Part shown: positions 2,393 to 49,323 of the stretch, piece after piece | Layout of the letters: each line of letters starts with the position of its first letter | How positions within the stretch are numbered: the stretch's first letter is position 1 | Source of the DNA: Pristiophorus japonicus | Lineage: Eukaryota | Reading direction: 5' to 3' | Assembly (NCBI RefSeq): GCF_044704955.1 | Contig: NC_091989.1 | Span: forward strand, 46,500,001-46,564,000 | Length of the DNA stretch: 64,000 nt | Notes under the pieces: model-generated | The model's input: the letters and a program-made list of their open reading frames with translations, nothing else | The model's database searches: none | Told to the model about the DNA's origin: nothing | Made by a program: the position numbers and the translations under genes

Positions 2393-3457
2393 GGGGTCAA
2401 GTTTCAGCTGCCCGCTGGAACGGCGCACATCGGAGAGGCCCGCCTAATTTATAAAACAAAAATTGCGCCGAATGCTTACTTCGCGATTCTCCGATAGCTG
2501 TAGGCCCATTTCCACCTCGGTGCTGCGCAGCAGGAGCTGCTGGGGGCGGAGCTACAGCCCTGCGCCGAAAACAGTGCCGGCAGCTTCTCAACGTGCGCAA
2601 TAGCTGCCGGCTTCCTGTCTCCGGGCGATGGCCCTATCCCAGGCCAAAGGGACATCGCCCCTATCCCCGGCCGAGTGGCCTGCGCGTCTTATCTCAGCGG
2701 CGGGGCCCACCCGCCTGGCCTCTCGCTGGGGGCAGGCCCCGCCCGAAGAGTTGGCGGCGGCAGTAGCCCGGCATCGGCTGCTTGCGGGCCCCGCCCGAAG
2801 TCCTCAGCGGGGCCCGGCTTCTTCATCGTTTTCTTTCCCCCCCTCCATCTTCCTCTCTTCTCCGCCCCCCCCCCATCTTCTCTTCTCACCCCCCCCCCCC
2901 CCCACAACCATCTTCTCTTCTCCCCCCCCATCATCTTCTCTCCACCCCCCCATCATCATCTTCACTTTTCCCCCCCTCCTTCTCCCTGGTGCTGTAGTAG
3001 GTGAGTGGAAATAATTTATTTATTGTGTGATTTTCAATTTTTAAAACATTTTTCATTTTTTAATTTATTTGGATTGATTTATTTATCATTTATTATTGAT
3101 GGCTCTTTATTTGTAAAAGTGAAGTGTTTAATGTTTGTAAACTCCTCCCCCCCCCCCCGCAATCTTTCATTCCATACGCCTGATTTCCAAGTGTAGACAA
3201 GGTTTTTCTGGGCGAACAAAAATCTACACTTACTCCATTCTAAGTTAGTTTGGAGTAAGTTTTTGCTGCCTAAACTTGCAAAGCAGGCGTAAGTGGCCAG
3301 ACACTTTTTGGAAAAAAAAATCTGTTTTAAAATTAAACTGTTCTAACTCACTAGAACTGGAGCAAACTAAAGGCCGAGAATTGCAATTTCTAATATACTC
3401 CATTCTAAACTAGTTGCTCCAAAAAACTAGGAGCAACTCAGGCAGAAACTTGACCCC
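2393..3457 (+). mobile_element. Non-autonomous PIF/Harbinger MITE
   Basis: TIRs GGGGTCAAGTTTC / GAAACTTGACCCC with 3-bp TSD TAT. The interior is GC-rich and the right end is related to the 15637 MITE family. Confidence 0.88.
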
Positions 3458-3484
3458 TATGTTTCTGTGAGGTGGATGACCGTT

Positions 3485-3684
3485 NNNNNNNNNNNNNNNN
3501 NNNNNNNNNNNNNNNNNNNNNNNNNNNNNNNNNNNNNNNNNNNNNNNNNNNNNNNNNNNNNNNNNNNNNNNNNNNNNNNNNNNNNNNNNNNNNNNNNNNN
3601 NNNNNNNNNNNNNNNNNNNNNNNNNNNNNNNNNNNNNNNNNNNNNNNNNNNNNNNNNNNNNNNNNNNNNNNNNNNNNNNNNNNN
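3485..3684. other. Assembly gap (200 N)
   Basis: Run of N. Confidence 1.
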
Positions 3685-6037: not shown

Positions 6038-6938
6038 GCTTAACATCCGTAAGACAAAGGTCCTCCACCAGCCTACCCTACGTCGCACAGCACTGCCCCC
6101 ATTCATCAAGATTCATGGCGCGGCCCTCAAAAACGTGGACCACTTCCATACCTCGGGAGCCCCTTGTCAACAAAGGCAGACATTGATGCGGAGATTCATC
6201 AGCGCCTCCAGTGCGCCAGTGCAGCCTTTGGCTGCCTGAGGAAAAGAGTGTTCAAAGACCAGGCCCTCAAACCTACCACCAAGCTCATGGTCTACATGTC
6301 TGTAGTAATTCCCGCCCTCCTGTATGGATCAGAGGCATAGGCCATGTACAGAAGACACCTCAAGTCGCTGGAGATATACCACCAACGATGTCTCCGCAAG
6401 ATCCTGCAAATCCCCTGGGAGGACAGATGCACCAACATCAGTGTCCTCGCCCAAGCTAGCATCCCCAGCATTGAAGCACGAACCACACTCGATCAGCTTC
6501 GCTGGGCAGGCCACTTAGTTCGATGCCAGACACAAGACTCCCCAAGCAATTGCGCTACGCAGAGTTCCTTCGTGGCAACTGAGTCAAAGGTGGGCAGCGG
6601 AAACATTACAAGATCACTCTCAAAGCCTCCCTGGTGAAGTGCAACATCACCACTGACACCTGGGAGACCTTGGCCGAAGACCGCCCTAGGTGGAGAAAGT
6701 GCATCCGGAGGGCGCTGAGCTCTTTGAATCTCAACGCTGCGAGCGTGAAGAAGTCAGGCGCAGGCAGCGGAAAGAGCGTGCGGCAAATCAGTCCCACCCC
6801 CACTTCCCCCGACGAATGTCTGTCCCACCTGTGACAGGTTCTGTGGCTCTCGTGTTGGACTGTTCAGCCACCAAAGAAACTCACTTTAGGAGTGGAAGCA
6901 AGTCTTCCTCGATTCCAAGGGACTGCCTATGATGATGA
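6038..6938 (+). mobile_element. 5'-truncated RTE-clade LINE (degenerate RT C-terminus plus 3' tail)
   Basis: Encodes YHQRCLRKILQIPWEDR..DQLRWAGH motifs and ends gactgcctATGATGATGA. Frameshifted. Confidence 0.88.
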
Positions 6939-15589: not shown

Positions 15590-17135
15590 TAAAGCAAGCT
15601 CGAAGAACAGCACCTCATCTTTCATTTAAGCACTTTGGGCCCAAGTTTCCACACGATAAAAAACGGGCGCCCCTCCGAGCTGGGCGCCCGTTTTTCGCGC
15701 CTAAAACGGCACCGGAAAAAAAACGCGCGATTCTGAAGCGCCCAGCAGCTCCTTGTCTGTTTGGCGCGGCGCCCAGGGGGGGGCGGAGCCTACACTCGCG
15801 CCGATTTTGTAAGTGGGAAGGGGCGGGTACCATTTAAATTAGTTTTTTTCCTGCCGGCAACGCTGCGCGTGCGCGTTGAAGCGTTCGCGCACGCGCAGTG
15901 TGAAGGAAATATTGGCACTCGGCCATTTTTGTAGTTCTTTGCAGCTGTTTAATTTTTGAACATTTTTTAATAAAAGCACATTGCCATCAGCACTGAGAAG
16001 GCTGCAGGAAGCCTCAGAAAGTTGAGGCAGCCGTTTCCCTCCCCCTCCCCGCCCGCCGTCGGGAACGAACGGCTTTCTCCTCCCCCCCCCCCCCCCCGCG
16101 GGAACGAGCGGCTTTCTCCTCCCCCCCCCCCCCCCCCGCGGGAACGAGCGGCTTTCTCCTCCCCCCCCCCCCCCCCGCGGGAACGAATGGCTTTCTCCTC
16201 CCCCCCCCCCCCCCCGCGGGAACGAACGCCTGCAGCATTCTCCCTGGCTGAAGCACTTTCACACAGGTAGGAAGATGGTTTATTTAATCTTTTCTTTGCT
16301 TATAAATGTTTATTCAGGTTGGATTTATTTGTATAATATTTGTAGAAGTATAAATAAGGATTTATTATAGAATTTAATGACTTCCCTTCCCCCCCCACCC
16401 CCCCCCCCACCTCGTTCTGGACGCCTAATTTGTAACCTGCGCCTGATTTTTTAATGTGTAGACAAGGTTTTTTCAGTTCTACAAAAATCTTCACTTGCTC
16501 CATTCTAACTTAGTTTGGAGTACGTTTTTCCTGTGGAAACTTTGAAATCAGGCGTCAGTGGCCGGACACGCCCCCTCTTGAAGAAAAAATTCTGTTCCAA
16601 AGTGGAACTGTTCTACCTGACTAGAACTGCAGAAAAAAAAATGTGGAGAATTGCGATTTCTAAGATAGTCCGTTCTCCACCAGTTGCTCCTAAAAATCAG
16701 GCGCAAATCATGTGGAAACTTGGGCCCTTTATTGCCTTCTGGACTCAACATCGAGTTCAACAATTTCAGTCTATAACCTCTGCCCATATTTGACTCCCTT
16801 CCCTCCTTTTTTTCTGTAAAACTCCCCCCCTGCTCCCCCAACCCCCACTATGTAATTTTGTTCTCTGTCTCCCATGGTAGCTGGTAATTATTCTGCCATT
16901 CACACCCGATCAAGACTAAACTTTTGTCTCTCTAATCTCTCCTATCTTCCACCCTTTCACAGACCTTCCTTTTTGTTCTATCTTCCCCTCCCCCTTTCAG
17001 TGCTCCTTAAGAATCTGTTCATTTCAAACATTCGACAGTTGTGATAAAGGGTCAACCACCTGAAATGTTAACTCTGTTTTTCTCTCCTGGCCCGCTGAGA
17101 TTTCAAGCATTTTCTGTTTTTATTTCAGATTCCAG
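15590..17135 (+). mobile_element. Penelope-like element 3' remnant (GIY-YIG C-terminus plus terminal repeat), interrupted by a MITE
   Basis: Removing the MITE joins KLEEQHLIFHLSTL (15595-15636) to LPSGLNIEFNNF (16732-16768), the typical end of the Penelope endonuclease. A pyrimidine-rich UTR and an HHR-like motif follow. Confidence 0.7.
15637..16727 (+). mobile_element. Harbinger MITE copy 1 (GGGCCCAAGTTTCCAC family)
   Basis: TIRs of about 21 bp (GGGCCCAAGTTTCCACACGAT / ATCATGTGGAAACTTGGGCCC) with TSD TTT. Contains an internal poly-C minisatellite. Confidence 0.92.
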
Positions 17136-17397
17136 TATTTTATAAGAACATAAGAATTAGGAACAGGAGTAGGCCATCTAGCCCCTCGAGCCTGCTCCGC
17201 CATTCAACAAGATCATGGCTGATCTGGCCGTGGACTCAGCTCCACTTACCCGCCCGATCCCCATTGTAAAGGGACGTAGGTAGACTAAGTGCGCAGAACC
17301 ATGGCGGAGGGAGTTCAATGTCGGGAAGTAAGAGGTCATCGACTTTGGATCTGAGAAAGACCAATCGGAATTTCTTCTTTAAACAGTGAGAGACTAT

Positions 17398-18896
17398 GGG
17401 CCCAAGTTTCCACATGATAAAAAACGGGCGCCCCTCCGAGCTGGGCGCCCGTTTTTCGCGCCTAAAATGGCGCCGGAAAAAAAGCTCGCGATTCTGGAGG
17501 ATTCTGGAGCATTCTGCAGCTCCTTGTCTGCTTGGCGCGGCGCCCAGGGGGGCGGAGCCTACACTCGCGCCGATTTTGTAAGTGGGAGGGGGCGGATACT
17601 ATTTAAATTAGTTTTTTCCTGCCGGCAACGCTGCACATGCGCGTTGGAGCGTTCGCGCATGCTCAGTGTGAAAAAAACATTGGCACTCGGCCATTTTTGT
17701 CGTTCTTTGTAGCTGTTTAGTTTTTGAACATTTTTTAATAAAAGTACATTGCCATCAGCACAGAGGCTTCTTGTAGCAGTGAGAAGGGTGAAGGAAGCCT
17801 CAAAGTTGAGGCAGCCGTTTCCCGACGACCTCCCCCTTTTGCCGTCGGGAAATGGCTCCTCAATTTCTGAGGCTTCCTGCAGCCTTCTCGCTTTCCCGCC
17901 AGCCGTCTGGAACGGCTCCATTCCCACCCCCCCACCCCCCGCGTTCGGTCGGCTCCTTCCCTTCCCGCCCCGCGTTCGGTAGGCTCCCTCCCTCCCGCCT
18001 GTGTTCGGTAGGCTCCCTCCCTCCCGCCCGCGTTCGGTCAGCTCCCCCCCCCAACCCGCGTTCAGTCGGCTCCTCCCCACCCCGCGTTCGGTCGGCTCCC
18101 TCCCCTCCCCCCCCCCACCCCGCGTTCGGTCGGCTCCCTTCCCTCCCCCCCCCCACCCCCCACCCCGCGTTCGGTCGGCTCCCTTCCCTCCCCCCCCACC
18201 CCCGCGTTCGGTAGGTTCCCACCCGTGTTCGGTCGGCTCCCTCCCGCCCGCGTTCGGTTGGCTCTCTCCCTCCCGCATTGGTCGGCTCCCTTCCCTTCCC
18301 TCTCCTCCTCTCTCCCCCCCCCACCTCCCCCGTTCGTCGGCTCCCTCTCTTTCTCCCCCCCCCGCCCCCCACCCCGCGTTCGGTCGGCTCCCTCGTTTTG
18401 TGAGGCTTGCTGCAGAATTCTTCCTGGCTGAAGCACTTTCACACAGGTAGGAAGATGGTTTATTTAATCTTTTCTTTGCTTATAAATGTTTATTCAGGTT
18501 GGATTTATTTGTATAAGTATAAATAAGGATTGATTGTAGAATTTAATGAGTTCCCTTCCCCCTCCCCCTCTCCCCCCACCTCGTTCTGGACGCCTGATTT
18601 GTAACCTGCGCCTGATTTTTTAATGTGTAGAACAGGTTTTTTCAGTTCTACAAAAATCTTCACTTGCTCCATTCTACTTTAGTTTGGAGTACATTTTCAC
18701 TGTGGAAACTTTCAAATCAGGCGTCAGTGGCCGGACACGCCCCCTTTTGAAGAAAAAATTCTGTTCCAAAGTAGAACTGTTCTACCTGACTAGAACTGCA
18801 GAAAAGAAAATGTGGAGAATTGCGATTTCTAAGATAGTCCGTTCTCCACCAGTTGCTCCTAAAAATCAGGCGCAAATCATGTGGAAACTTGGGCCC
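17398..18896 (+). mobile_element. Harbinger MITE copy 2 (chimeric; non-matching flanks)
   Basis: Same TIRs as copy 1, but the flanking triplets TAT/TTT do not match. The left flank is the inverted flank of copy 3 and the right flank is that of copy 1. Confidence 0.92.
17930..18395 (+). repeat. GC-rich minisatellite (unit about 25-35 bp: CCCCGCGTTCGGTCGGCTCCCTTCCCT + poly-C) within MITE
   Basis: More than ten visible units. The inverted counterpart is at 44125-44665. Confidence 0.9.
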
Positions 18897-19282
18897 TTTA
18901 TTGCCTTCTGGACTCAACATCGTGTTCAACAATTTCAGTCCATAACCTCTGCCCATATTTGACTCCCTTCCCTCCTTTTTTTCTGTAAAACTCCCCCCCT
19001 GCTCCCCCAACCCCCACTATGTAATTTTGTTCTCTGTCTCCCATGGTAGCTGGTAATTATTCCACCATTCACACCCGATCAAGACTAAACTTTTGTCTCT
19101 CTAATCTCTCCTATCTTCCACCCTTTCACAGACCATCCTTTTTGTTCTATCTTCCCCTCCCCCTTTCAGTGCTCCTTAAGAATCTGTTCATTTCAAACAT
19201 TCGACAGTTGTGATAAAGGGTCATCAACCTGAAATGTTAACTCTGTTTTTCTCTCCTGGCCGGCTGAGATTTCCAGCATTTT
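18897..19282 (+). repeat. Direct duplicate of 16728-17113 (continues at 21933-22085 as a duplicate of 17110-17262)
   Basis: Near-identical sequence with scattered substitutions, e.g. catcgagttc vs catcgtgttc and tctgccatt vs tccaccatt. Confidence 0.93.
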
Positions 19283-21932
19283 AGAAACATAGAAACATAG
19301 AAAATAGGTGCAGGAGCAGGCCATTCAGCCCTTCTAGCCTGCACCGCCATTCAATGAGTTCATGGCTGAACATGAAACTTCAGTACCCCCTTCCTGCTTT
19401 CTCGCCATAACCCTTGATCCCCCGAGTAGTAAGGACTTCATCTAACTCCCTTTTGAATATATTTAGTGAATTGGCCTCAACTACTTTCTGTGGTAGAGAA
19501 TTCCACAGGTTCACCACTCTCTGGGTGAAGAAGTTTCTCCTCATCTCGGTCCTAAATGGCTTACCCCTTATCCTCAGACTGTGACCCCTGGTTCTGGACT
19601 TCCCCAACATTGGGAACATTCTTTCTGCATCTAACCTGTCTAAACCCGTCAGAATTTTAAACGTTTCTATGAGGTCCCCTCTCATTCTTCTGAACTCCAG
19701 TGAATACAAGCCCAATTGATCCAATCTTTCTTGATAGGTCAGTCCCGCCATCCCGGGAATCAGTCTGGTGAACCTTCGCTGCACTCCCTCAATAGCAAGA
19801 ATGTCCTTCCTCAAGTTAGGAGACCAAAACTGTACACAATACTCCAGGTGTGGCCTCACCAAGGCCCTGTACAACTGTAGCAACACCTCCCTGCCCCTGT
19901 ATTCAAATCCCCTCGCTATGAAGGCCAACATGCCATTTGCTTTCTTAACCGCCTGCTGTACCTGCATGCCAACCTTCAATGACTGATGTACCATGACACC
20001 CAGGTCTCGTTGCACCTTCCCTTTTCCTAATCTGTCACCATTCAGATAATAGTCTGTCTCTCTGTTTTTACCACCAAAGTGGATAACCTCACATTTATCC
20101 ACATTATACTTCATCTGCCATGCATTTGCCCACTCACCTAACCTATCCAAGTCACTCTGCAGCCTAATAGCATCCTCCTCGCAGCTCACACTGCCACCCA
20201 ACTTAGTATCATCCGCAAATTTGGAGATACTGCATTTAATCCCCTCGTCTAAATCATTAATGTACAATGTAAACAGCTGGGGCCCCAGCACAGAACCTTG
20301 CGGCACTCCACTAGTCACTGCCTGCCATTCTGAAAAGTACCCGTTTACTCCTACTCTTTGCTTCCTGTCTGACAACCAGTTCTCAATCCACGTCAGCACA
20401 CTACCCCCAATCCCATGTGCTTTAACTTTGCACATTAATCTCTTGTGTGGGACCTTGTCGAAAGCCTTCTGAAAGTCCAAATATACCACATCAACTGGTT
20501 CTCCTTTGTCCACTTTACTGGAAACATCCTCAAAAAATTCCAGAAGATTTGTCAAGCATGATTTCCCTTTCACAAATCCATGCTGACTTGGACCTATCAT
20601 GTCACCATTTTCCAGATGCACTGCTATGACATCCTTAATAATTGATTCCATCATTTTACCCACTACTGAGGTCAGGCTGACCGGTCTATAATTCCCTGTT
20701 TTCTCTCTCCCTCCTTTTTTAAAAAGTGGGGTTACATTGGCTACCCTCCACTCCATAGGAACTGATCCAGAGTCAATGGAATGTTGGAAAATGACTGTCA
20801 ATGCATCCGCTATTTCCAAGGCCACCTCCTTAAGTACTCTAGGATGCAGGCCATCAGGCCCTGGGGATTTATCTGCCTTCAATCCCATCAATTTCCCCAA
20901 CACAATTTCCCGACTAATAAAGATTTCCCTCAGTTCCTCTTCCTTACTAGACCCTCTGACCCCTTTTATATCCGGAAGGTTGTTTGTATCCTCCTTAGTG
21001 AATACCGAACCAAAGTACTTGTTCAATTGATCCGCCATTTCTTTGTTCCCCGTTATGACTTCCCCTGATTCTGACTGCAGGGGACCTACGTTTGTCTTCA
21101 CCAACCTTTTTCTCTTTACATACCTATAGAAACTTTTGCAATCCGCCTTAATGTTCCCTGCAAGCTTCTTCTCGTACTCCATTTTCCCTGTCCTAATCAA
21201 ACCCTTTGTCCTCCTCTGCTGAGTTCTAAATTTCTCCCAGTCCCCAGGTTCGCTGCTATTTCTGGCCAATTTGTATGCCACTTCCTTGGCTTTAATACTA
21301 TCCCTGATTTCCCTAGATAGCCACGGTTGAGCCACCTTCCCCTTTTTATTTTTACGCCAGACAGGAATGTACAATTGTTGTACTTCATCCATGCGGTCTC
21401 TAAATGTCTGCCATTGCCCATCCACAGTCAACCCCCTAAGTATCATTCGCCAATCTATCCTAGCCAATTCTCGCCTCATACCTTCAAAGTTACCCTTCTT
21501 TAAGTTCTGGACCATGGTCTCTGAATTTACTGTTTCATTCTCCATCCTAATGCAGAATTCCACCATATTATGGTCACTCTTCCCCAAGGGGCCTCGCACA
21601 ATGAGATTGCTAATTAATCCTCTCTCATTACACAACACCCAGTCTAAGATGGCCTCCCCCCTAGTTGGTTCCTCAACATATTGGTCTAGAAAACCATCCC
21701 TTATGCACTCCAGGAAATCCTCCTCCACCGTATTGCTTCCAGTTTGGCTAGCCCAATCTATGTGCATATTAAAGTCACCCATTATAACTGCTACACCTTT
21801 ATTGCATGCACCCCTAATTTCCTGTTTGATGCCCTCCCCAACATCCCTATTACTGTTTGGAGGTCTGTACACAACTCCTACTAACGTTTTTTGCCCTTTG
21901 GTGTTCTGCAGCTCTACCCATATAGATTCCAC
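19282..21932 (-). mobile_element. Young 5'-truncated CR1 LINE with an uninterrupted 850-aa ORF2 portion (partial AP endonuclease plus RT)
   Basis: ORF 19380-21932 has [25 protein letters not shown] and FADD motifs. The 3' tail is (TTTCTATG)n. Confidence 0.97.
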
Positions 21933-21964
21933 ATTTCTGTTTTTATTTCAAATTCCAGTATTTT

Positions 21965-24900
21965 ATAAGAACATAAGAATTAGGAACAGGAGTAGGCCAT
22001 CTAGCCCCTCGAGCCTGCTCCGCCATTCAACAAGATCATGGCTGATCTGGCCGTGGACTCAGCTCCACTTACCCGCCCGATCCCCGTAACCCTTAATTCC
22101 CTTATTGGTTAAAAATCTATCTATCCGTGACTTGAATACATTCAATGAGCTAGCCTCAACTGCTTCCTTGGGCAGAGAATTCCACAGATTCACAACCCTC
22201 TGGGAGAAGAAATTCCTTCTCAACTCGGTTTTAAATTGGCTCCCCCGTATTTTGAGGCTGTGCCCCCTAGTTCTAGTCTCCCTGACCAGTGGAAACAACC
22301 TCTCTGCCTCTATCTTGTCTATCCCTTTCATTATTTTAAATGTTTGTATAAGATCACCCCTCATCCTTCTGGACTCCAACGAGTAAAGACCCAGTCTACT
22401 CAATCTATCATCATAAGGTAACCCCCTCATCTCTGGAATCAGCCTAGTGAATCGTCTCTGTACCCCCTCCAAAGCTAGTATATCCTTCCTTAAGTAAGGT
22501 GACCAAAACTGCACACAGTACTCCAGGTGCGGCCTCGCCAATACCCTATACAGTTGCAGCAGGACCTCCCTGATTTTGTACTCCATCCCTCTCGCAATGA
22601 AGGCCAACATTCCATTCGCCTTCCTGATTACCTGCTGCACCTGCAAACTAACTTTTTGGGATTCATGCACAAGGACCCCCAGTTCCCTCTGCACCGCAGC
22701 ATGTTGTAATTTCTCCCCATTCAAATAATATTCCCTTTTACTAGTTTTTTTTCCCCAAGGTGGATGACCTCACACTTTCCGACATTGTATTCCATCTGCC
22801 AAACATTAGCCCATTCGCTTAACCTATCCAAATCTCTTTGCAGCCTCTCTGTGTCCTCTACACAACCCACTTTCCCACTAATCTTTGTGTCATCTGCAAA
22901 TTTTGTTACACTACACTCTGTCCCCTCTTCCAGGTCATCTATATATATTGTAAACAGTTGTGGTCCCAGCACCGATCCCTTTGGCACACCACTAACCACC
23001 GATTTCCAACCCGAAAAGGACCCATTTATCCCGACTCTCTGCTTTCTGTTAGCCAGCCAATTCTCTATCCATGCTAATACATTTCCTCTGACTCTGCAAA
23101 CCTTCATCTTCTGCAGTAACCTTTTGTGTGGCACCTTATCGAATGCCTTTTGGAAATCTAAATACACCATATCCATCGGTACACCTCTATCCACCATGCT
23201 CGTTATATCCTCAAAGAATTCCAGTAAATTAGTTAAACATGATTTCCCCTTCATGAATCCATGTTGCGTCTGCTTGATTGCACTATTCCTATCTAGATGT
23301 CCCGCTATTTCTTCCTTAATGATAGTCTCAAGCATTTTCCCCACTACAGATGTTAAACTAACCGGCCTATAGTTACCTGCCTTTTGTCTGCCCCCTTTTT
23401 TTAAACAGAGGCGTTACATTAGCTGCTTTCCAATCCGCTGGTAACTCCCCAGAGTCCAGAGAATTTTGGTAGATTGTAACTAATGCATCTGTATAACTTC
23501 TGCCATCTCTTTTAATACCCTGGGATGCATTTCATTAGGACCAGGGTACTTGTCTACCTTGAGTCCCATTAGCCTGTCTAGCACTACACCCCTAGTGCTA
23601 GTGATTGTCTCAAGGTCCTCCCTTCCCACATTCCTGTGACCAGCAATTTTTGGCATGGTTTTTGTGTCTTCCACTGTGAAGACCGAAACAAAATAATTGT
23701 TTAAGGTCGCAGCCATTTCCACATTTCCCATTATTAAATCCCCCTTCTCATCTTCTAAGGGACCAACATTTACTTTAGTTTTATATATCTGTAAAAGCTT
23801 TTCCGTTTTATATATCTGTAAAAGCTTTTACTATCTGTTTTTATGTTTTGTGCAAGTTTACCCTCATAATCTATCTTTCCTTTCTTTATTGCTTTCTTAG
23901 TCATTCTTTGCTGTCGTTTAAAATTTTCCCAATCTTCTAGTTTCCCACTAACTTTGGCCTCCTTATACGCATTGGTTTTTAATTTGATACTCTCCTTTAT
24001 TTCCTTGGTTATCCACGGCTGATTATCCCTTCTCTTACCGCCCTTCTTTTTCACTGGAATATATTTTTGTTGAGCACTGTGAAAGAGCTCCTTAAAAGTC
24101 CTCCACTGTTCCTCAATTGTGCCACCGTTTAGTCTGTGTTTCCAGTCTACTTTAGCCAACTCTGCCCTCATCCCACTGTAGTCCCCTTTGTTTAAGTATA
24201 GTACGCTCGTTTGAGACACTACTTCCTCACCCTCAATCTGTATTACAAATTCAACCATACTGTGATCACTCATTCCGAGAGGATCTTTTACTAGGAGATC
24301 GTTTATTATTCCTGTCTCATTACACAGGACCAGATCTAAGATAGCTTGCTCCCTTGTAGGTTCTGTAACATACTGTTCTAAGAAACAATCCCGTATGCAT
24401 TCTATGAATTCCTCCTCCAGGCTACCCCGTGCGATTTGATTTGACCAATCGATATGTAGGTTAAAATCCCCCATGACTACTGCCGTTCCTTTTTCACATG
24501 CCTCCATTATTCCCTTGATTATTACCCGCCCCACCGTGAAGTTATTATTTGGGGGCCTATAAACTACACCCACCAGTGACTTTTTCCCCTTACTATCTCT
24601 AATCTCCACCCACAATGATTCAACATTTTGTTCATTAGAGCCAATATCGTCTCTCACAACTGCCCTGATATCATCCTTTATTAACAGAACTACCCCACCT
24701 CCTTTCCCTTCTTGTCTATCTTTCCGAATCGTCAGATACCCCTGTATGTTTAATTCACAGTCTTGGCCACCCTGCAACCACGTTTCTGTAATGGCCACCA
24801 AATCATACCCATTTGTAATGATTTGTGCCGTCAACTCATTTACTTTATTTCGAATGCTGCGTACGTTTAGGTAGAGTGTTTTAATACTAGTTTTTAAACC

Positions 24901-25741
24901 ATCATTTTTAGTTTTGACCCCTCCTGCAGTCCCTTTACATTCAGTGGCCCTTTTTGTTTTTTGCCTTGGGTTTCTCTGCTCTCCACTTTTACTCATCTCC
25001 TTTCTGTCTTTTGCTTTCGTCTCCTTTTTGTTTCCCTCTGTCTCCCTGCATTGGTTCCCATCCCCCTGCCATATTAGTTTAACTCCTCCCCAACAGCACT
25101 AGCAAACACTCCCCCAAGGACATTGGTTCCGGTCCTGCCTCGGTGCAGACCGTCCGGTTTGTACTGGTCCCACCTCCCCCAGAACTGGTTCCAATGCCCC
25201 AGGAATTTGAATCCCTCCCTGCTGCACCACTGCTCAAGCCACGTATTCATCTGAGCTATCCTGCGATTCCTACTCTGACTAGCATGTGGCACTGGTAGCA
25301 ATCCTGAGATTACTACTTTTGAGGTCCTACGTTTTAATTTTGCTCCTAGCTCCTTAAATTCGTTTCGTAGGACTTCATCCCTTTTTTTACCTATATCGTT
25401 GGTACCAATGTGCACCACGACAACTGGCTGTTCACCCTCCCTTTTCAGAATGTCCTGCACCCGCTCCGAGACATCCTTGACATACCATTCTGCGGCCGCA
25501 GAAACGGCCATCTATTCCCCTTACAATCGAATCTCCCATCACTATTGCTCTCCCACTCTTTTTCCTGCCCTCCTGTGCAGCAGAGCCAGCCACGGTGCCA
25601 TGAACTTGGCTGCTGCTGCCCTCCCCTAATGAGTCATCCCTCTCAACAGTACTCAAAACGGTGTATCTGTTTTGCAGGGGGATGACCGCAGGGGACTCCT
25701 GCACTACCTTCCTTGCACTGCTCTTCCTGCTGGTCTTCCAT
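21965..25741 (-). mobile_element. Long CR1 LINE with ORF1 esterase (SGNH) remnant and frameshifted ORF2 (EN-RT)
   Basis: ORF1 pieces: GDSIVRG, VVVHIGTND, PDGLH (25074-25704). ORF2 pieces: YLNVRS, ITETW, GDFN, SDH, FADD (22059-24996). The 3' tail is (TTCTTAT). Confidence 0.96.
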
Positions 25742-28011: not shown

Positions 28012-30200
28012 CTCAAAAACAAGTCGAAGTGCAGGAACATCAAGAAGGACGGGAGGTTGAGGGCGTCCGCCTTTGAAGAGATGGAGTTACCTGCCCTTCT
28101 GGAGAATATAACAGAGAGGTACTCCGACCTAACGAAGGGCAGTCGTGGAAAAATAACAAAATATGGTACGAGGTGTGCGCGCGAGAGGTGTGCGAGTGCA
28201 TGAGCGTGATATTTAAATGGAGTGAAGATTTTAACTTTAATTTACTTCACTTTCTGCAGAAGACATCTGCAATAACAGCAGATCAGCAGCGTACAGTGGG
28301 AGGACCCACAACCCAAAAGCCATTGCCAGAAATAGAGGTCCGTGCCCTGTCCCTGGTCGAGGATAGCAACCATTCCACCACCGGCGTTGGAGCTGATGCA
28401 CTAATTTGAATATGTAATGTAATGTAACTGTGACGAATGTTGGCCTGATGTGAAGTACTGCAATGTTGGGGACATGTAACGCAATCCATATATGTATTGT
28501 CTGTCTGCGATATGTAATGCAGTAATGCAGCAGTGGTGGACATTCATGTCATCATCATAGGCAGTCTCTCGAAATCAAGGAAGACTTGCTTCCACTCGAA
28601 AACTGAGTTCTCAGGTGACTGTACAGTCCAATACGGGAATTACAGTCTCAGTCACAGGTGGGACAGACAGTCATTGAAGGAAAGGGTGGGTGGGGAGTCT
28701 GGTTTGCCGCACACTCCTTCCGCTGTATGTGCTTGTTTTCTGCATGCTCTCGGCGACGAGACTCGAGGTGTTGAACGCCCTCCCGGATGCTCTTTGTCCA
28801 CTTCGGGCGGTCTTTGACCAGGGATTCCCAAGCATCGGTGGGGATGTTGTACTTTATCACGGAGGTTTTGAGGGTCCAAGCTTATGGTCAAGAGGGCTGT
28901 GGTGATACCCGCCCTCCTGTATGGTTCAGAGACGTGGACCATATACAGTCGACACCTCAAATGGCTGGAAAAATACCACCAATGATGTCTCTGCAAGATC
29001 CTGCAAATCCCAAGAAGATAGACGCACCGTCAGTGTTCTCCATCAGGCCAACATCCCCAGCATCGAAGCACTAACCACACTCAACCAGCTCCGTTGGGTG
29101 GGCCGCATTGTCCGCATGCCCGACACAAGACTCCCAAAGCAAGCGCTCTACTCGGAACTCCTACATGGCAGGCGATACCCAGGTGGGCAGAGGAAACGTT
29201 TCAAGGACACCCTCAGAGCCTCCTTGATTAAGTGCAACATTTAAGAAAGACGGCGCTCAGTCACTGTACTCTGTACTCATGCAACCCTGACCCCTCCCCG
29301 TGTGCCAAGCATTTGTAAATGTTGCTTTGCACTTCCAAATTCAGACAACACCTCCACAAAGAGACCAGATGACAGACCCACTGCCTCTACCTCTGGCGTC
29401 ACCCAGCTCTCTCCCGACTTCACCACTGACAGAGATGATAAAGACGAAGAGGAAGCGGAAGAGCCGCTGATCCTGGAGCCAATGGAGGTGGAGACCAGTT
29501 TTATGTGGGACAGCTGGAACATCCTCCACCACCGAGTCTATATTCAGGGGATTCTCCCATGGCTCCTCTGATTCTGCGGGACCAAGTGGGGTGCAACAAG
29601 GCACCCCCAGCGTTGCAGCGCCTTTGCCGCAGCGACGGAAGTTGGTGCAGAAAATGTCGGTTGCTGCATGACAGATAGGTGCGTACCAGGACATGGTGCA
29701 TCTGTCAAAGGCCAGTGTTGACATAGATCGAAAGCTGCTCAAGACCATGGCTATGATAGCCGCAAACATTGCGGCTCTATCAGAACGACAGTCGGAGGGT
29801 ATGTCGCATTCGATCACCACGATGAAGTGAACTACCGACTCTATCGATGCCATGCAGCAATCGATGGGATCGGGACATGGCGCATAATCCCCCCGTGCCA
29901 TAGTAGTCAGGTCGACAGCACCCGAGGGTGGGGAGCTACCAGCAATTTCCAACCCTGAAGTCGTGCCTTCCGGATTACGAGCTTCTCCTGAGGCCCCATT
30001 TATTGCGCCTGCAATGTCTGACCCCCGACAGCAACAGCACTCGGGGTGCAGTGCTGCACACCGGCTTGGTACCATTACGGGGAGGTCCGGGCTCAGGGCT
30101 CAGGGGCAGTGGGAAAGGGAAGGGCGAGAGTAAGAAGTGGGGGGGCGGGGGGGGACTTAGTCCCAAGGGTGGTGGAGCACGTGGTCGAGGTCAAGGACAG
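28012..30200 (+). pseudogene. Myb/SANT-like DNA-binding protein gene remnant of Harbinger 1 (multi-exon)
   Basis: RASAFEEMELPALLENITERYSDL is a Myb/SANT-like N-terminus. It is followed by a tttctgcAG acceptor (28259), TVGGP..LPEIEVRAL, and acidic and basic RG-rich later segments. Confidence 0.65.
28548..29240. mobile_element. RTE LINE insertion with inverted 5' segment
   Basis: The minus-strand 3' end with (CAT)n tail (28548-28875) is joined to a plus-strand upstream segment (28876-29240). Confidence 0.85.
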
Positions 30201-30461: not shown

Positions 30462-31500
30462 TTATGAGTTGCTGACGTAACAATTTTGCAGTAGCATACG
30501 CTCCACGTATCCTCGGGGGGGGGGGGGGGGGGGGCATGGGTTCATCTGCAAGCTCCTCCTCATCCTTTCCCCCCAATCCCTCTCCTCATTTTCCTCTTCC
30601 GTCTCCTGCGCACGCTGCTCAGGTGGTCTCGCAGTCCCCTGTGGCAATTCATGTCCCTGCACGATGGCTAAATTATGCAACATGCAGCACACCACTGTGA
30701 ACTGAGCAACCTGCTCAGGGTGGTATTGCAGCCTGCCTCCCGAGTGGTCCAAGCATCGAAAGCGCTGCTTCAGCACTCCAATTGTCTTTTCGATAATATT
30801 ATGTGTGGCTATATGATTCATTGTATCGTTGCTCGGCTTCTGTCTGAGGGTTCCGCAGGGGAGTCAAGAGCCAGTTGGCGAAGTCGTACCCTTTGTCCCC
30901 CAGCATCCAGCATTTACCGTGTGGCTCAGATAACAACAGATCAGATACAGTGCTCTCTCGCAAGATGTGCGCATCATGGATGTTCCCTGGAAAGTAGGCA
31001 TTCACTGCCATTATGCACTGTGTATAGTCGCATTCAAAGTGCACGTTGAGGGAGTGGAATCCCTTATGTTTTCAGTACACTTCCGCCTCCTGTAATGGTG
31101 CTCGCAGGGCAATATGGGTACAGTCAATAGCACCCTGCATCTTAGGAAAGCTGGCAATGCGTCCAAATCCCAAAGCCCTGTCACTCTGTGCCTCCCTGGT
31201 CATTGGGAAGTTAATAAATTCCATCCAGCGTGTATACAGTGATTCGGTTACCTGTCGAATGCACCAATGAGTAGCGTACTGCAAAGTGCAGCATATGTCC
31301 CCAGCTGATACCTGAAAAGAGCCACATGCATACAAAGGAAAGTGCCGCAGTCACCTTCATCTCGACAGTGCAGTAATGTTGGTGGTACTGGCTGCAGGTC
31401 TGCCTTAATGAGCTGGCAAATCTCATTGATCACCTCTTTTCGGAAGCGCATCCTTCGAACACACTGTCGATTTGCATCCTGCATTAGACAGGCTGAGATA
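30462..31500 (-). pseudogene. Harbinger (HARBI1-like DDE) transposase pseudogene
   Basis: Encodes FPKMQGAIDCTHI, GNIHDAHIL, LGDKGY, IEKTIGVLKQRFRCL and CCMLHN across several frames. Confidence 0.93.
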
Positions 31501-37059: not shown

Positions 37060-40000
37060 GGCCTGATTTTGCAGTGGTAATGAACTGTTCGCCGTCATTA
37101 CCCCTCTGAAACTGACCATAACTTCAGCACATGTGCAGCAAAAAGCAAAAATCCTGAAGTTGCTGTCAGTCATTCACTGCTCCGCCACAGGCTCTACTAT
37201 GGAATTCCTCCGAGCCAGCAATCAATGAAACCAGTCGAACTGACAAAAACCTAAGTTTTTCCTCTGTAATATCGCTGTTAAACACCTCATTAAAAGTTAA
37301 GCCTTGTTGAAATAGGTGTAATTAGGGTTTTAATGGCGCATTGACTGCTGAACAAGTCTGGTCCTGAAAAATTAATTTTATTTGTACAATGTCAAATTTC
37401 GCCATGATAGAAAATTACTAGGTTTTTAAAAATAACTTTTTTTTAAACATTTTTTTTAAGTTTATGATATTTCAGCTTCTACCTTAATCCCATATATATG
37501 TTTCAATCGTTATTTTGCTCTCTGTATAAATATTTTTAAAAATGAATTGAACTCATGCTTTTTATTTCCTGGTTTGCTGTCTGCTAGAATTCTTCAATGT
37601 GATTGGCTACTTATCATCATCACAGGCAGTCCCTAAAAATCGAGGAAGACTTGCTTCCACTCTAAAAGTGAGTTCTTATGTGACCGAATAGTCCAATACG
37701 GGAATTACAGCCTCTGTCACAGATGGGACAGACAGTCGTTGAAGGAAAGGGTTGGTGGGAAGACTGGTTTGCCACACGCTCCTTCCATTGCCTGCGCTTG
37801 CTTTCTGCATGCTCTCGGCGACGAGACTCGAGGTGCTCAGCGCCCTCCCGGATGCTCTTCCTCCACTTAAGACGGTCTTTGGCCAGGGACTCCCAGGTGT
37901 CGGTGAGGATGTTGCACTTTATCAAGGAGACTTTGAAGGCGTCCTCAAGACGTTTCCTCTGCCTACCTGGGGCTCGCTTGCCGTGTAGGAGTTCCGAGTT
38001 GAGTGCTTGCTTTGGGAGTCTTGTGTCAGGCATGTGAACAATGTGGTCCGCCCAACGGAACTGGTCGAGTGCGGCCAGTGCTTCGATGCTGGGGATGTTG
38101 GCCTGATCAAGGACGCCAACATTGGTGCGTCGGTCCTCCCAGGGGATTTGCATGATCTTGCGGAGACATCGTTGCTGGTATTTCTCCAGCGATTTGAGGT
38201 GTCTGCTATATATGGTCCATGTCTCTTAGCCATATAGGAGGGCGGGTATTACCAGATTTGAGGGCCTGATCCTCGAACACTCTCTTCCTCAGGCATCGAA
38301 GACTGCGCTAGCACACTGGAGGCAGTGGTGGACCTCGTTGTCGATGTCTGCCCTTGCTCCCGAGGTATGGAAAGTGGTCCATGTTGTCCAAGGCTGCGCC
38401 ATGGATTTTGATGACCAGGAGTCAGTGCTGTGTGGTGGGGTCAAGTTGTTTAGTATGTTTAGTGTAAGGTCCATGATTTCGTATGCCTCGGTTAAGATGT
38501 TGACGATGGCTTGGAGTTCAGCCTCTGAATGTGCGCAGACGCAAGCGTCGTCCGCGTACTGTAGTTCGACAGCAGAGGATGGGACAGGCTTGGATCTAGC
38601 CTGGAGGCAACGAAGGTTGAACAGGTTCCCACTGGTTCTATAGTTTAGTTCCACTCCAGCGGGGAGCTTGTTGAGCGTGAGATGGAGCACTGCAGCGTGT
38701 AAAGATCGAGAAGAGGGTTGGCGCAATGACGTCAAGGCCAGCTCTGAGCTGGCCGAAAGGACTTCAAAGGATGCCATCGGATCAGGAGAGGGAGGACAGA
38801 GTTCAGACCTGTTCCAAATTATATATTTATCCTCGTTAGATTATTTATAAATCTCCCTCAGCTGCTCCAGGCTCGCGCTGCCTCCGCTGTCAAGGAGACG
38901 CTTATTTAAGGACACGGACCTCTGGGGAGCCGTGATCGGCAGAGAGGGGTAGCGAAAACCATCTCCAGCGGTACCCTGCTCCTGACAAAATGCCTGGAAC
39001 ACGACCTTGTCATCACCAACACCTTGTTCCGCCAGAGGGAAAAGTACAAGGCATCGTGCAACACCCTCGCTCCAAACACTGCCATCTGCTCGACTCAGTC
39101 ATCGTTCGAGTGAGGGATCGCAAGGGCATGCGCATCACCCGCGCCATGACAGGAGCCGCGACTGCTGGACGGACTACCGCCTAATCCGTTCCATTATCAA
39201 TATTAATATAGTCCCAAAGCAACAATGGCATCAGAAGCAATGCCGCAGAAAAATCAATGCCAGGGCACTCAAAGACCTATACAGCCAGCGCCTCACTGCC
39301 AACCTGGCGACCCTCGGTGACCCCGAGACGCAGAGTGTCCACAGCACTTGGTCTGGCCTCCAGGCCACCATAACCAGTACCTGCGAAAAACGCTCGGCCA
39401 CTCGACCAGGAAACACAAGGATTGCTTTGATGGGAATGACCAGAAGATCCATGAGTTAATAAACCGCAAGTACAGGGCATTTCTGAACTTAAAGCAACAA
39501 CCCAACTCGGGTGCAGCAAAGCAGCTCTACAGATGGCTGAGTGCCGAGGTCCAACAAAAAACCCGCGACCTGAAGAATAGATGGTGGGTGGAGAAAGCAC
39601 AGGGGATTCAGCAGCTGGCCGACAGCCATGACGTGAGAGGATTCTTCACTGCAGTCAAGTCCACCTACGGTCCAAGCACATAAAGCCCCACCCCATTGCT
39701 GGCCAAGAATAGGGAGACACTCATCAAGGACACCGAGGCAGTCAGGGCCCACTGGAAGGAGCACTTCAAAGATCTCCTTAATCGAGACTCTGCCTTCGAC
39801 ACGAGTGTCCTCGACTCCATCCCGCAGCATGCTACCCGCCACCACCTTAGCAAAACCCCAGCCCTGCAAGAGGTAGAAAAGGCCATCCATCAGCTCAAGA
39901 GCAACAAGGTATCAGGAGCAGATGGAATCCTCGCTGAGGCACTAAAGTATGGCAGCGAGGCACTATTGGCTCGAATGCATGACCTCATCTCTCTCATCTG

Positions 40001-40710
40001 GAAGGAGGATTGCATGCCTGGAGATCTGAGAGATGCAGTAATCGTGACCATCTTTAAAAAAGGGGACAAGTCCGATTGCGGCAACTTCAGAGGAATCTCC
40101 GTTGTCGGCCACTGGGGAAGTCATTGCTCGAATCCTCCTCAACCATCTTCTCCCTGTGGCTGAGGAGCTCCTCCCGGAGTCACAGTGCAGAGTCCGTCCA
40201 TTACGGGGTACAACGGACATGATTTACGACGCGACAACTGCAAGAGAAATGTAGGGAACAGCACCAATCCTTGTACATGACCTTCTTTGACCTCACAAAG
40301 GCCTTTGACACTGTTAATCGGGAGGGACTCTGGAGTGTCCTCCTCCATTTCAGCTGCCCCCTAAAGTGTGTTACCATCCACTGCCTGCTCCGCGAAGACA
40401 TACAAGCCATGATCCTGACCAACGGATCCATCACAGACCCAATCCATGTCCGGACCGGGGTCAAGCAGAGCTGAGTCATTGAGCCAACCCTCTTCTCAAT
40501 CTTTCTCACTGGCAGCTTGATGACATGACTGCTGCTCGACGCTAAGGGTCCCCTTTCGACAGCGCTGCAATTAATTTAACATCAAGAAAGCTTAAGTTTT
40601 CACCAGAGATCGCAAGATCTTTGTGGGCAGTTCCCCACCCGCCCCCCTCCGCACCATGCAGAGGTCAACGGCAATTGCTGTCGCTTGGCCGCTGGCTGCA
40701 AATTCCGGGC
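37060..40710. mobile_element. Old Harbinger-type MITE split by an RTE insertion
   Basis: Imperfect TIRs GGCCTGATTTTGCAG / CTGCAAATTCCGGGC with TSD TAT on both sides. Confidence 0.7.
37613..40510. mobile_element. RTE-clade LINE with 5' inversion (minus-strand 3' part 37613-38732; plus-strand upstream part about 38908-40510)
   Basis: The minus piece has LQYADD, RWADH, the CPIC..H end and a (CAT)n tail. The plus piece has VITNT/LLD/DH endonuclease remnants, KKGDKSDC.N.RGIS, DLTKAFDTV and GVKQ. Confidence 0.9.
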
Positions 40711-43634: not shown

Positions 43635-45181
43635 GGGCCCAAGTTTCCACATGATTTGCGCCTGATTTTTAGGAGCAACTGGTGGAGAACGGACTATCTT
43701 AGAATTCGCAATTCTTCACATTTTCTTTTCTGCAGTTCTAGTCAGGTAGAACAGTTCTACTTTGGAACAGAATTTTTTCTTCAAAAAGGGGGCGTGTCTG
43801 GCCACTGACACCTGATTTGAAAGTTTCCACAGTGAAAATGTACTCCAAACTAAAGTAGAATGGAGCAAGTGAAGATTTTTGTAGAACTGAAAAAACCTGT
43901 TCTACACATTAAAAAATCAGGCGCAGGTTACAAATCAGGCGTCCAGAACGAGGCGGGGGGGGAGGGGAACTCATTAAATTCTACAATCAATCCTTATTTA
44001 TACTTATACAAATAAATCCAACCTGAATAAACATTTATAAGCAAAGAAAAGATTAAATAAACCATCTTCCTACCTGTGTGAAAGTGCTTCAGCCAGGGAG
44101 AATTCTGCAGCAAGTCTCACAAAACGAGGGAGCCGACCGAATGAGGGCCGGGGGGTGGGGGGGGGGGAAGAAGAGAGGGAGCCAACCGAACGCGGGGAAG
44201 GGAGCCGACGAACGGGGGGGGGGGGGGGGGGGGGGGAGGAGAGAGGAGGGAAGGGAGCCGACGAATGCGGGAGGGAGAGAGCCAACCGAACGCGGGCGAG
44301 AGGGAGCCGATCGAACACGGGTGGGAGCCTACCGAACGCGGGGGTGGGGGGGGAGGGAAGGGAGCCGACCGAACGCGGGGTGGGGGGCGGGGGGGAGGGA
44401 AGGGAGCCGACCGAACGCGGGGTGGGGAGGGAAGGGAGCCGACCGAACGCGGGGTGGGGAGGGAAGGGAGCCGACCGAACGCGGGGTGGGGGGGGGAGGA
44501 GGGAAGGGAGCCGACCGAACGCGGGGTGGGGGGGAGCCGACTGAACGCGGGGTGGGGGGGGGGGGAGCCGACCGAACGCGGGCGGGAGGGAGGGAGCCTA
44601 CCGAACACAGGCGGGAAGGGAGGGAGCCGACCGAACGCGGGGGGGGGGGGGGGGGGGGGGGAGGGAATGGAGCCGTTCCAGACGGCTGGCGGGAAAGCGA
44701 GAAGGCTGCAGGAAGCCTCAGAAATTGAGGAGCCATTTCCCGACGGCAAAAGGGGGAGGTCGTCGGGAAACGGCTGCCTCAACTTTGAGGCTTCCTGCAG
44801 CCTTCTCACTGCTACAAGAAGCCTCTGTGCTGATGGCAATGTACTTTTATTAAAAAATGTTCAAAAACTAAACAGCTACAAAGAACGACAAAAATGGCCG
44901 AGTGCCAATGTTTTTTTCACACTGAGCATGCGCGAACGCTCCAACGCGCACGTGCAGCGTTGCCGGCAGGAAAAAAACTAATTTAAATAGTACCCGCCCC
45001 CTCCCACTTACAAAATTGGCGCGAGTGTAGGCTCCGCCCCCCTGGGCGCCGCGCCCAGCAGACAAGGAGCTGCAGAACGCTCCAGAATCGCGAGCTTTTC
45101 TTCCGGCGCCATTTTAGGCGCGAAAAACGGGCGCCCAGCTCGGAGGGGCGCCCGTTTTTTATCATGTGGAAACTTGGGCCC
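43635..45181 (-). mobile_element. Harbinger MITE copy 3
   Basis: 21-bp TIRs GGGCCCAAGTTTCCACATGAT with TSD CTA. Near-identical inverted match to 17398-18896. Confidence 0.93.
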
Positions 45182-45579
45182 CTAGTCTCTCACTGTTTAA
45201 AAAAGAAATTCCGATTGGTCTTTCTCAGATCCAAAGTCGATGACCTCTTACTTCCCGACATTGAACTCCCTCCGCCATGGTTCTGCGCACTTAGTCTACC
45301 TACGTCCTTTACAACTTCCTGCTCCCACTGACACAACTTACTGTGACTCCATTCCTCATGGAAGAAACTAAAATAAGCTTATACCCCAGTACAGATTCTG
45401 TCACATTCTGCCAATGTTGCTTTTATCCTTACTCTCTGTCTCCGACCTTTCCATCAATTAGCAATTCAGGTCACAAGGTTACGTCCAATACATTGCTGTT
45501 TCATTTTTGCTAATAATCTCTTGTGCCTTCTGAAGTCTATATAACAAATGGGCACTCCTTTGTCCACTATGCAGGCGAC

Positions 45580-49014: not shown

Positions 49015-49323
49015 AGAATCATAGACGTTTACAGCATGGAAGGAGGCCATTTCGGCCCACCGTGTCCATGCTGGCCAACAAGAGGCTATCCAGCCTAATC
49101 CCACAATCCAGCTCTAGGTCATTAACCCTGCAGGTTATGGCACTTCAGTTGCACATCCAAGTACTTTTTAAATGTGTGAGGGTTTCTGCCTCTACCACCC
49201 TTTCAGGCAGTGAGTTCCAGACCCCCACAACCCTCTGCGTGAAGACATTTCCCTTCAAATCTCCTCTAAACTGTCCACCAATTACCTTAAATTTATTCCC
49301 CCTGGTTGTTGACCCCTCTGCTA
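49015..49323 (-). mobile_element. Short CR1 3' end inserted in the Myb-like gene
   Basis: The minus strand encodes FTQRVVGVWNSLPERVVEA. It is flanked by the TSD-like pair aactttcac/agtttcac. Confidence 0.85.

Follow-up and report, generated by a model that had tools for sequence, protein, structure and literature searches.

Duplications of the DUP-NML-INV/DUP type ('Dup-invDup') arise via oppositely oriented LINE or Alu pairs and, in the available part of their description (PMC6902434), have the same structure and the same junction types as the locus analysed here: a distal segment lies inverted between direct copies of a proximal one, distal end is joined to distal end and proximal end to proximal end, one junction falls within a chimeric copy of the inverted repeat pair (at our locus a probable one) and the other is formed by microhomology (at our locus of 0-2 bp). 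Local 2-jump 'Dup-invDup' events, or cycles of templated insertion, are likewise portrayed in the accessible text of two reports (PMC7025897, PMC12583596) as having two local junctions, two low-level gains and inverted joins, with a host segment re-replicated around a templated insert; our locus shares each of these traits. A third relative is the model of break-induced replication (BIR) followed by MMBIR or NHEJ for DUP-TRP/INV-DUP, in which, as far as the available portion of the source goes (PMC11293582), inverted-repeat homology serves one switch and microhomology or end joining the other, as would be the case here. A partial literature search found no report of such a pattern at a MITE or in cartilaginous fish.

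Architecture of the locus

The sequence is a 64,000-nt stretch of the Pristiophorus japonicus assembly (GCF_044704955.1, contig NC_091989.1, positions 46,500,001-46,564,000, forward strand), referred to as the window, whose coordinates are used throughout. In the assembly, a segment termed B (16638/16728-17262) is present twice in direct orientation, and between the two copies sits an inverted copy of 43635/43725-45314, which comprises a transposon copy together with some 133-134 bp of its host flank. The features are as follows.

15637-16727, + strand: copy 1, a non-autonomous DNA transposon with a perfect 17-bp terminal inverted repeat (TIR) and target-site duplication (TSD) TTT/TTT; the site's original occupant
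16638-17262, + strand: segment B, first copy, made up of an element tail no longer than 90 bp, a repeat-derived flank (16728-17141) and the 3' end of CR1-B
17142-17262, - strand: duplicated last ~120 bp of CR1-B, severed at junction J1; start taken from contig loose ends
17262-17264, no strand: junction J1, where the distal end of B meets the distal end of the inverted donor
17264-17397, + strand: inverted flank copy, from 45314-45182, a piece of an old CR1-like ORF2
17398-18896, + strand: copy 2, with a 21-bp TIR and flanking pair TAT/TTT, resembling copy 3 as far as 18806 or beyond, its tandem array among the copy-3-type parts, and bordered on the right by the site of copy 1
18807-18896, + strand: interval of junction J2, over whose 90 bp copies 1 and 2 are identical
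18897-19282, + strand: left part of the second copy, B', with nine substitutions in 386 columns against 16728-17113
19283-21933, - strand: young 5'-truncated CR1-type LINE within B', with a TTT duplication of about 3 bp
21934-22085, + strand: right part of B', with one substitution in 152 columns
21965-25098, - strand: CR1-B, a long LINE with frameshifts and a duplicated 3' end (self-BLAST, reading frames), its 5' boundary provisional
43635-45181, - strand: copy 3, the donor, with a 21-bp TIR and intact TSD TAG/TAG, inverted relative to copy 1
45182-45314, - strand: donor flank, part of the old CR1-like ORF2

Self-BLAST of the window matches 17264-18897 to the reverse of 45314-43634, pairs 16230-17222 with 18410-19369, and aligns 17111-17262 with 21934-22085 (151/152 matching). 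The duplicated B amounts to 535-625 bp and the inverted donor insert to 1.54-1.63 kb, while the span between B and the donor shows no duplication (by self-BLAST, in the assembly only), so that two gains are separated by normal-copy DNA. The first-pass annotation had described a repeat of 16728-17262 at 18897-19282 plus 21933-22085, with which both self-BLAST and the B/B' alignment agree, and the structure as first described is confirmed in the assembly. Its template distance of 28 kb is a figure in derived coordinates, as against about 22-23 kb in the ancestral state.

Copies 1 and 3 lie in opposite orientation (+ and -, respectively) and are 93-94% identical outside a tandem array, which is wholly different in the two. 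At 1.1-1.5 kb the elements are long for a MITE. A 3-bp TSD forms part of the definition of PIF/Harbinger transposons (PMC9179366) and is present in both of the two intact copies (TTT/TTT, TAG/TAG); the TIRs, perfect over 21 bp in copies 2 and 3 and over 17 bp in copy 1, are slightly short against the 25-50 bp quoted for that group. An autonomous partner in that group would carry the same TIRs along with a DDE transposase and a Myb-like gene; the TIR word occurs within the window only at the three copies, and decayed pieces of a DDE_Tnp_4 transposase lie at 30465-31071, any tie to their family being putative at most. At 16734, the loose-end consensus of one sequencing run (X2) indicates that a host repeat family continues from the left flank of copy 1 into its right flank. 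Because both parents keep intact TSDs, no inversion or excision has occurred in this haplotype, for which a simple copy-1/copy-3 inversion is thereby rejected. The pair flanking copy 2, TAT/TTT, mixes those of its parents (TAG of copy 3, TTT of copy 1), bearing out the initial contention that an element without a matching TSD is no product of normal transposition; the TSD mismatch, the 535-bp duplication and a donor entry unlike a TIR dispose of flank transduction as well.

A screen for host genes, covering 16 long frames and the 87 of 152 frames of at least 85 codons that lie outside known LINE and array regions (a screen that short exons escape), returned only reverse transcriptase (RT), endonuclease and DDE_Tnp_4 domains above Pfam cut-offs. 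G-quadruplex-like tracts are common in the region (16 motifs), and one of them overlaps the breakpoint equivalent at 22072-22101; they are too frequent to serve as evidence.

Junctions, ancestry and age

The letters at J1 consist of one unmatched A, or else of a 2-bp GT microhomology if a later CpG decay (an assumed G>A) altered them. Microhomology of at least 2 bp has a probability of 0.16 by chance and is too short to name a pathway. The inverted flank beyond J1 differs from the donor flank by two substitutions and one indel in 133 columns, and the copied sequence extends to 45314 or, with one G>A permitted, to 45315; the originally proposed jump into about 45313-45182 thus stands as an entry into the inverted flank of copy 3, with its end amended. 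The old ORF2 to which this sequence belongs continues beyond copy 3 in either direction, tblastn placing its codons 390-548 to one side of the element and codons 656-793 to the other, and the donor flank matches other CR1 copies at 66-69%. Read-contig depth is 4-33 in the flank bin 17270-17319 versus 1e5-1e6 in most element bins, the latter being that of a very high-copy family. Low depth and a host ORF2 that runs on across copy 3 rule out that the flank belongs to the element, and the earlier view of it as a neighbour of copy 3, outside the transposon, is upheld.

Junction J2 connects 43635-43724 to 16638-16727, that is, proximal end to proximal end. In a three-way alignment outside the array (783 columns, up to 18806), copy 2 agrees with copy 3 at 41 sites and with copy 1 at six, and has seven private bases, which supports the derivation of copy 2 from copy 3 up to 18806; all four words that the first-pass annotation had named as diagnostic of copy 3 (ctactttagt, tacattttcac, agtagaac and gaaaagaaaa) are present in copy 2, and the ancestry it proposed is sustained. 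The G at 18806, common to copies 2 and 3, is too rare in the family to reach the 5% at which variants are listed (the four A>G variants that are listed all lie at other positions). Throughout the last 90 alignment columns, by contrast with what precedes them, copy 2 equals copy 1, and copy 3 differs at two (the equivalents of 18815 and 18826). Copies 1 and 2 show no difference in the 90 bp of the J2 interval versus 12/228 just to its left (P=0.023), a value weakened by the lower variability of the terminal 90 bp across the family. The interval contains the second-longest exact tract shared by copies 1 and 2 (90 bp) and also the second-longest shared by copies 1 and 3 (70 bp; the longest is 100 bp). 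Neither of the two copy-1-like bases in these 90 bp is diagnostic of copy 1, and at least one (16657) is the family majority. Because the interval contains no copy-1-diagnostic base, the argument for a crossover inside the element is solely the absence of differences between copies 1 and 2. A return through homology at about 18810-18896, as originally suggested, is consistent with 90 bp equal to copy 1, although the crossover cannot be placed within them.

The CR1 at 19283-21933, which retains an intact frame of 855 codons that encodes endonuclease and RT domains, is present in B' and absent from B. Compared with its nearest relative within the window, it has 22 changes of its own over 1422 columns (1.5%); this private divergence exceeds half of the B/B' distance and sets no more than a maximum for its age. 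The element was probably inserted into B' later than the duplication, an order that the age bound itself does not confirm. The ~120-bp CR1 end was considered as a new insertion, such as would produce a retrotransposon-made chimera, and was rejected, as its location is identical in both copies of B, with 151 of 152 positions matching.

The inserted segment has diverged at 16/1059 positions (1.5%) and B at 10/535 (1.9%), a difference without significance (Fisher P=0.68, or P=1.0 with the 90 bp included) in a comparison of low power, based on 26 substitutions. Of the changes in the inserted segment, 12/16 are transitions and 6/16 are of CpG type, and they are split about evenly between copies 2 and 3. 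They look like germline mutation, and no hypermutation of the copied tract was seen, the changes private to copy 2 being about as many as those private to copy 3. A single old event fits because both duplicated segments are equally diverged.

Mechanism and competing explanations

From the geometry of the segments, the ancestry of copy 2, the letters of the junctions and the equal divergence, we infer that one replication-repair event with two template switches produced the duplication around inverted copy 3 and its flank, and we place the probability of this reading at about two in three (0.68). A leftward-moving fork would likely have broken within the right-hand tail of copy 1, and the end so produced would then have invaded inverted copy 3, some 22 kb away, by way of about 90 near-identical terminal bases. 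Synthesis may have crossed the whole of copy 3 and 134 bp of its flank before disengaging, and the end would have rejoined at 17262 on the sister chromatid or homologue, with 0-2 bp of microhomology or by end joining. This point lies 0.5-0.6 kb behind the break, and B would in consequence have been re-replicated; insertion of the CR1 into B' would have followed. Such an account needs neither a transposase nor a function. The double template switch put forward by the first-pass annotation is supported. Its order, out by non-homology and back by homology, is unreadable from the sequence, and the reverse is more likely: a homology-first switch is preferred because it is more parsimonious and accords with the published model for inverted-repeat events, as outlined in the available text of PMC11293582.

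The same final sequence could have been reached in two steps, in which a tandem duplication of copy 1 and B, or else an inversion allele arising from crossover of copy 1 with copy 3, was followed by ectopic conversion from copy 3 or by a non-homologous rescue giving J1. Taken alone, J2 is the distal breakpoint of a copy-1/copy-3 inversion, and the divergence of B nominally exceeds that of the insert (1.9% versus 1.5%), but that difference is insignificant by either test given above, and the scheme calls for two independent events within 0.6 kb or for a 1.4-kb conversion across a wholly different tandem array. We regard it as unlikely.

An assembly artefact, in which two haplotypes, one with the copy-1/copy-3 inversion, were joined at a chimeric read and J1 is unreal, bears on read data. 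Contigs from four of the 24 listed sequencing runs were compared over 16420-17900, which covers the J1 side only; X1, X2 and X4 represent one sample, possibly the source of the assembly. Among the 32 pieces listed (235,846 more lie beyond the list), no contig bridges J1, but contigs drop branches and the junction may be present nonetheless. At least three contigs, one each from X1, X2 and X4, cover 17272-17417 and represent the donor locus, starting at 17272 among the matches listed; at 17377, among those matches, X1 and X4 show the copy-3 letter and no other, and X2 shows none. Run X5, from another organism, has zero cover over B and the flank, and entries with a small share in the run list were set aside. 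The window also contains an assembly gap at 3485-3684, and the CR1 in one copy and the 1.5-1.9% differences, initially taken as marks of a real and older event, could in principle be allelic and are on their own compatible with a join of two alleles; the age itself is borne out by the equal divergence and by the share of transitions and CpG-type changes. Against such a join, J1 offers no homology on which an assembler could act, and the differences are rich in substitutions, with a bias to CpG. In X1, X2 and X4 the depths in the bin 17270-17319 add up to 1.7-2.4 times the depth of the listed donor contig, and the X2 flank contig ends at 17376, the last base before a difference between copies 2 and 3, as would be expected if the reads hold both versions; both are weak pointers. 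Overall, an artefact appears distinctly improbable.

A transposase could instead have cut copy 1 and copy 3 at their right ends in S phase, the end of copy 3 then being joined to the flank of copy 1 exactly at the TIR and the re-replicated flanks fused at J1. The J2 interval includes the exact TIR end; 15637-18896 is element-ended, is bordered by TTT left and right and has a non-homologous flank join in its interior, resembling the composite insertions of maize Ac/Ds described in the accessible part of PMC4270019; and the DDE_Tnp_4 pieces at 30465-31071 could be a relic of the enzyme, though their link to the family of copies 1-3 is putative only. However, there is no new target site, since the TTT pair is the original one of copy 1; the duplication breakpoint lies 134 bp beyond any element end and the donor entry is unlike a TIR; and the tail of copy 2 lacks the differences from copy 1 that descent wholly from copy 3 would predict (P=0.023). 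This reading is very doubtful, and equally slim is the prospect that a Harbinger-type transposase acting on inverted copies in S phase left here a vertebrate counterpart of the maize composite insertions, as an old germline fossil. If true, and recurrent in so high-copy a family, it would give the genome a way to expand locally. A donor that is a third paralogue elsewhere (a segmental duplication), making the local 22-kb geometry incidental, is scarcely credible, given a flank at low-copy depth and listed contigs that match the letters of the donor locus.

Comparison with known systems

If the template-switch reading is real, less than 100 bp of near-identity between inverted DNA-transposon copies would suffice for a two-switch rearrangement of the human Alu/LINE type, and such an event would persist in the germline long enough for 1.5-2% divergence. 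Chimeric copies lacking a TSD, such as copy 2, would then inflate transposition counts. As a single event in repeat DNA in which no gene was detected, the locus opens no standing question.

The resemblance to transposable element-mediated rearrangements (TEMRs) holds at class level only, in that a structural-variant junction probably lies inside homologous transposon copies (PMC9675761, from its available text). The maize Ac/fAc reversed-ends composite insertions, as the accessible part of PMC4270019 presents them, likewise fuse the flanks of two elements internally beside a direct duplication; unlike them, our locus has no new target with its own TSD, and its breakpoint at 17262 lies off the element ends. 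In contrast to DUP-TRP/INV-DUP, in the portion of PMC11293582 available, there is no triplication, and the homologous stretch belongs to a dispersed element and does not exceed 90 bp, where that model has a large low-copy repeat. Local 2-jump events, in the available text of PMC7025897 and PMC12583596, are somatic or de novo and called versus a reference, whereas the ancestral state here was reconstructed from the sequence itself. Judged by its sequence, the pattern is the known DUP-NML-INV/DUP in miniature, with inverted DNA-transposon copies replacing inverted Alus or LINEs: segments of 0.6 and 1.6 kb lie about 22 kb apart, where the accessible part of PMC6902434 gives a normal-copy gap of megabases, and the mediating repeat is a non-autonomous DNA transposon in a non-human genome, in an old germline event with no gene-dosage effect seen.

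Arrangement of the duplicated locus

The proposed order, in which copy 1 of a non-autonomous terminal-inverted-repeat (TIR) transposon is followed by a jump into the inverted flank of copy 3, by copy 2 and by the flank of copy 1 again, is present in the assembly. Its parts, identified by self-BLAST of the window and alignments (copy 1 by alignments), are as follows. B denotes the duplicated flank, B' its second occurrence and CR1-B the long frameshifted LINE whose 3' end was duplicated.

15637-16727, copy 1, 3-bp target site duplication (TSD) TTT/TTT intact
After copy 1 and up to 17262, flank and CR1-B 3' end, then junction J1
17264-17397, inverted copy of 45314-45182
17398-18896, copy 2, TAT on the left and TTT on the right
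18897-19282, flank, second occurrence
19283-21933, CR1 inside B'
21934 onward, remaining flank, CR1-B continuing
43635-45181, minus strand, copy 3, TSD TAG intact

The target sites of copy 2 are unmatched, the left TAT being one change from the TAG of copy 3 and the right TTT that of copy 1. The 3-bp TSD suggests a PIF/Harbinger element, following the available text of PMC9179366; a partner transposase was not found in the window, nor was a host gene by Pfam in the frames tested there. A decayed Harbinger-type transposase (DDE_Tnp_4) occupies two frames at 30465-31071 (minus strand), with a related stretch, 67% identical, at 52272-53056. The frame at 48516-49379 (plus strand) has a stretch resembling by eye the Myb/SANT-like gene that Harbinger elements carry as their second, with no Pfam match. 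An old relative of the element's right arm (76-77%) at 3177-3458 adjoins an N gap (3485-3684).

The flank copied with copy 3 is host DNA and not, as would undo the first-pass annotation, part of the element. An old CR1-like ORF2 spans copy 3, with codons 390-548 to one side and 656-793 to the other. The flank is 66-69% identical to other CR1 copies, and its depth in run contigs is 4-33, most element bins reaching 1e5-1e6.

Ancestry of copy 2 and the proposed crossover

The claimed copy-3 ancestry of copy 2 is borne out. Over 783 columns up to 18806, excluding the mid-element G/C-rich array, copy 2 agrees with copy 3 at 41 sites and with copy 1 at 6, a further 7 being private (a few of these sites adjoin a poly-C tract, which aligns loosely), and its array is of copy-3 type. 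The G at 18806, common to copies 2 and 3, is rare in the family: all four A>G places counted per run, in contigs, lie elsewhere. In copy 1 (16034-16228) the array has a 39-bp unit; in copies 2 (17927-18394) and 3 (44176-44651) the unit measures 25-38 bp. Copies 2 (17778-17892) and 3 (44696-44810) also carry an imperfect internal inverted repeat of about 115 bp, mostly absent from copy 1, and a 10-bp tandem microduplication (17491-17510) is private to copy 2.

A return through MITE homology in the last ~90 bp holds in part. Copies 1 and 2 are identical across 18807-18896, and two bases set copy 3 apart. One of them, equivalent to 16657, falls below the 5% listing level for the family in run contigs, which makes it private to copy 3; at the second base, several G>A rows lie outside those listed. 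Because the former is private, the tail of copy 2 reads as family consensus, without positive copy-1 identity. A crossover within the element is supported by the fall in copy 1/copy 2 differences from 12/228 to 0/90 on entering the tail (P=0.023), although the family varies less towards the element's end, which weakens the argument. Such a crossover would lie somewhere in 18807-18896, TIR end included.

Junction, mechanism and alternatives

At J1, B terminates in CCCC; CR1-B continues with GT, the donor has GT at 45315-45314, and the junction itself reads AT. We infer either one untemplated base or a 2-bp microhomology that formed a CpG and later decayed. Microhomology of at least 2 bases has a chance probability of 0.16, so the repair pathway cannot be named.

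The direction of switching is symmetric in sequence alone. Against the suggested order, out by non-homology and back by homology, we favour homology first, because in the former a random jump would have to come down 134 bp short of another copy, in the right orientation, of the element traversed shortly before; for inverted-repeat events the model published in the available text of PMC11293582 likewise puts homology first. A leftward fork would break within the tail of copy 1. The broken end would invade copy 3, which is inverted and in ancestral coordinates lay about 22 kb off, copy 1.54-1.63 kb from that locus and rejoin, with no real homology, 0.5-0.6 kb behind the point of breakage.

Insert and donor differ at 16/1059 columns (array excluded) and B and B' at 10/535 (P=0.68); of the 16 insert/donor substitutions, 12 are transitions and 6 affect CpG sites, with private changes about evenly divided between both copies. 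This pattern fits, at low power, a single old event and subsequent neutral decay; a two-step history is unlikely. The CR1 in B' has an intact 855-codon frame with endonuclease and reverse transcriptase (RT) domains, and its insertion site is empty in B, so it most likely arrived after the duplication. Compared with the 61-kb copy over 1422 columns it carries 22 private changes, a figure that sets only an upper bound on its age. We take it to be a CR1 from its Pfam RT and endonuclease matches and its 3' tail. A second young CR1 of this subfamily, with an open frame of 507 codons and 50 differences over 1613 columns, lies at 60897-62506. Another LINE family, presumably RTE-like, has several decayed copies (37614-40160; pieces at 6086-6938, 28549-29240, 47675-47966 and 1357-1742), with a C2H2 finger at the end. 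The types of repeat point to a probable cartilaginous-fish host.

An assembly artefact is slightly less probable still. Much of the locus is present in four runs, all of one sample and possibly the assembly's source; three of these (X1, X2 and X4) and one of another organism were aligned to 16420-17900 as contigs, which show presence, not absence. No contig bridges J1 among the 32 pieces listed (235,846 further pieces), the flank-covering contigs listed are of donor-locus origin and start at 17272, and X1 and X4 have only the copy-3 letter at 17377. Contig builders, however, drop short branches hanging off high-copy repeats. Weakly against an artefact, the X2 flank contig ends at 17376, the last base common to both versions, and in all three runs the flank bin has a summed depth 1.7-2.4x that of the listed contig. 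Joining at the TIR by a transposase is improbable, and a third donor locus in place of copy 3 is scarcely credible.

Comparison with known systems

The available text of PMC6902434 lists three arrangements of DUP-NML-INV/DUP, the first being the structure here; one patient, in whom the inverted LINEs are 93% identical and the other junction shows microhomology, has the same junction pair. The structure is likewise the local 2-jump termed Dup-invDup in studies of cancer and of de novo events, as described in the portions available of PMC7025897 and PMC12583596. Maize composite insertions are alike in form but involve a new target, which this locus lacks (PMC4270019, available text). Within the literature searched, with partial coverage, no report describes this pattern at a MITE. 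Novelty here would be confined to a DNA transposon as the substrate, the small scale and the age of the event.
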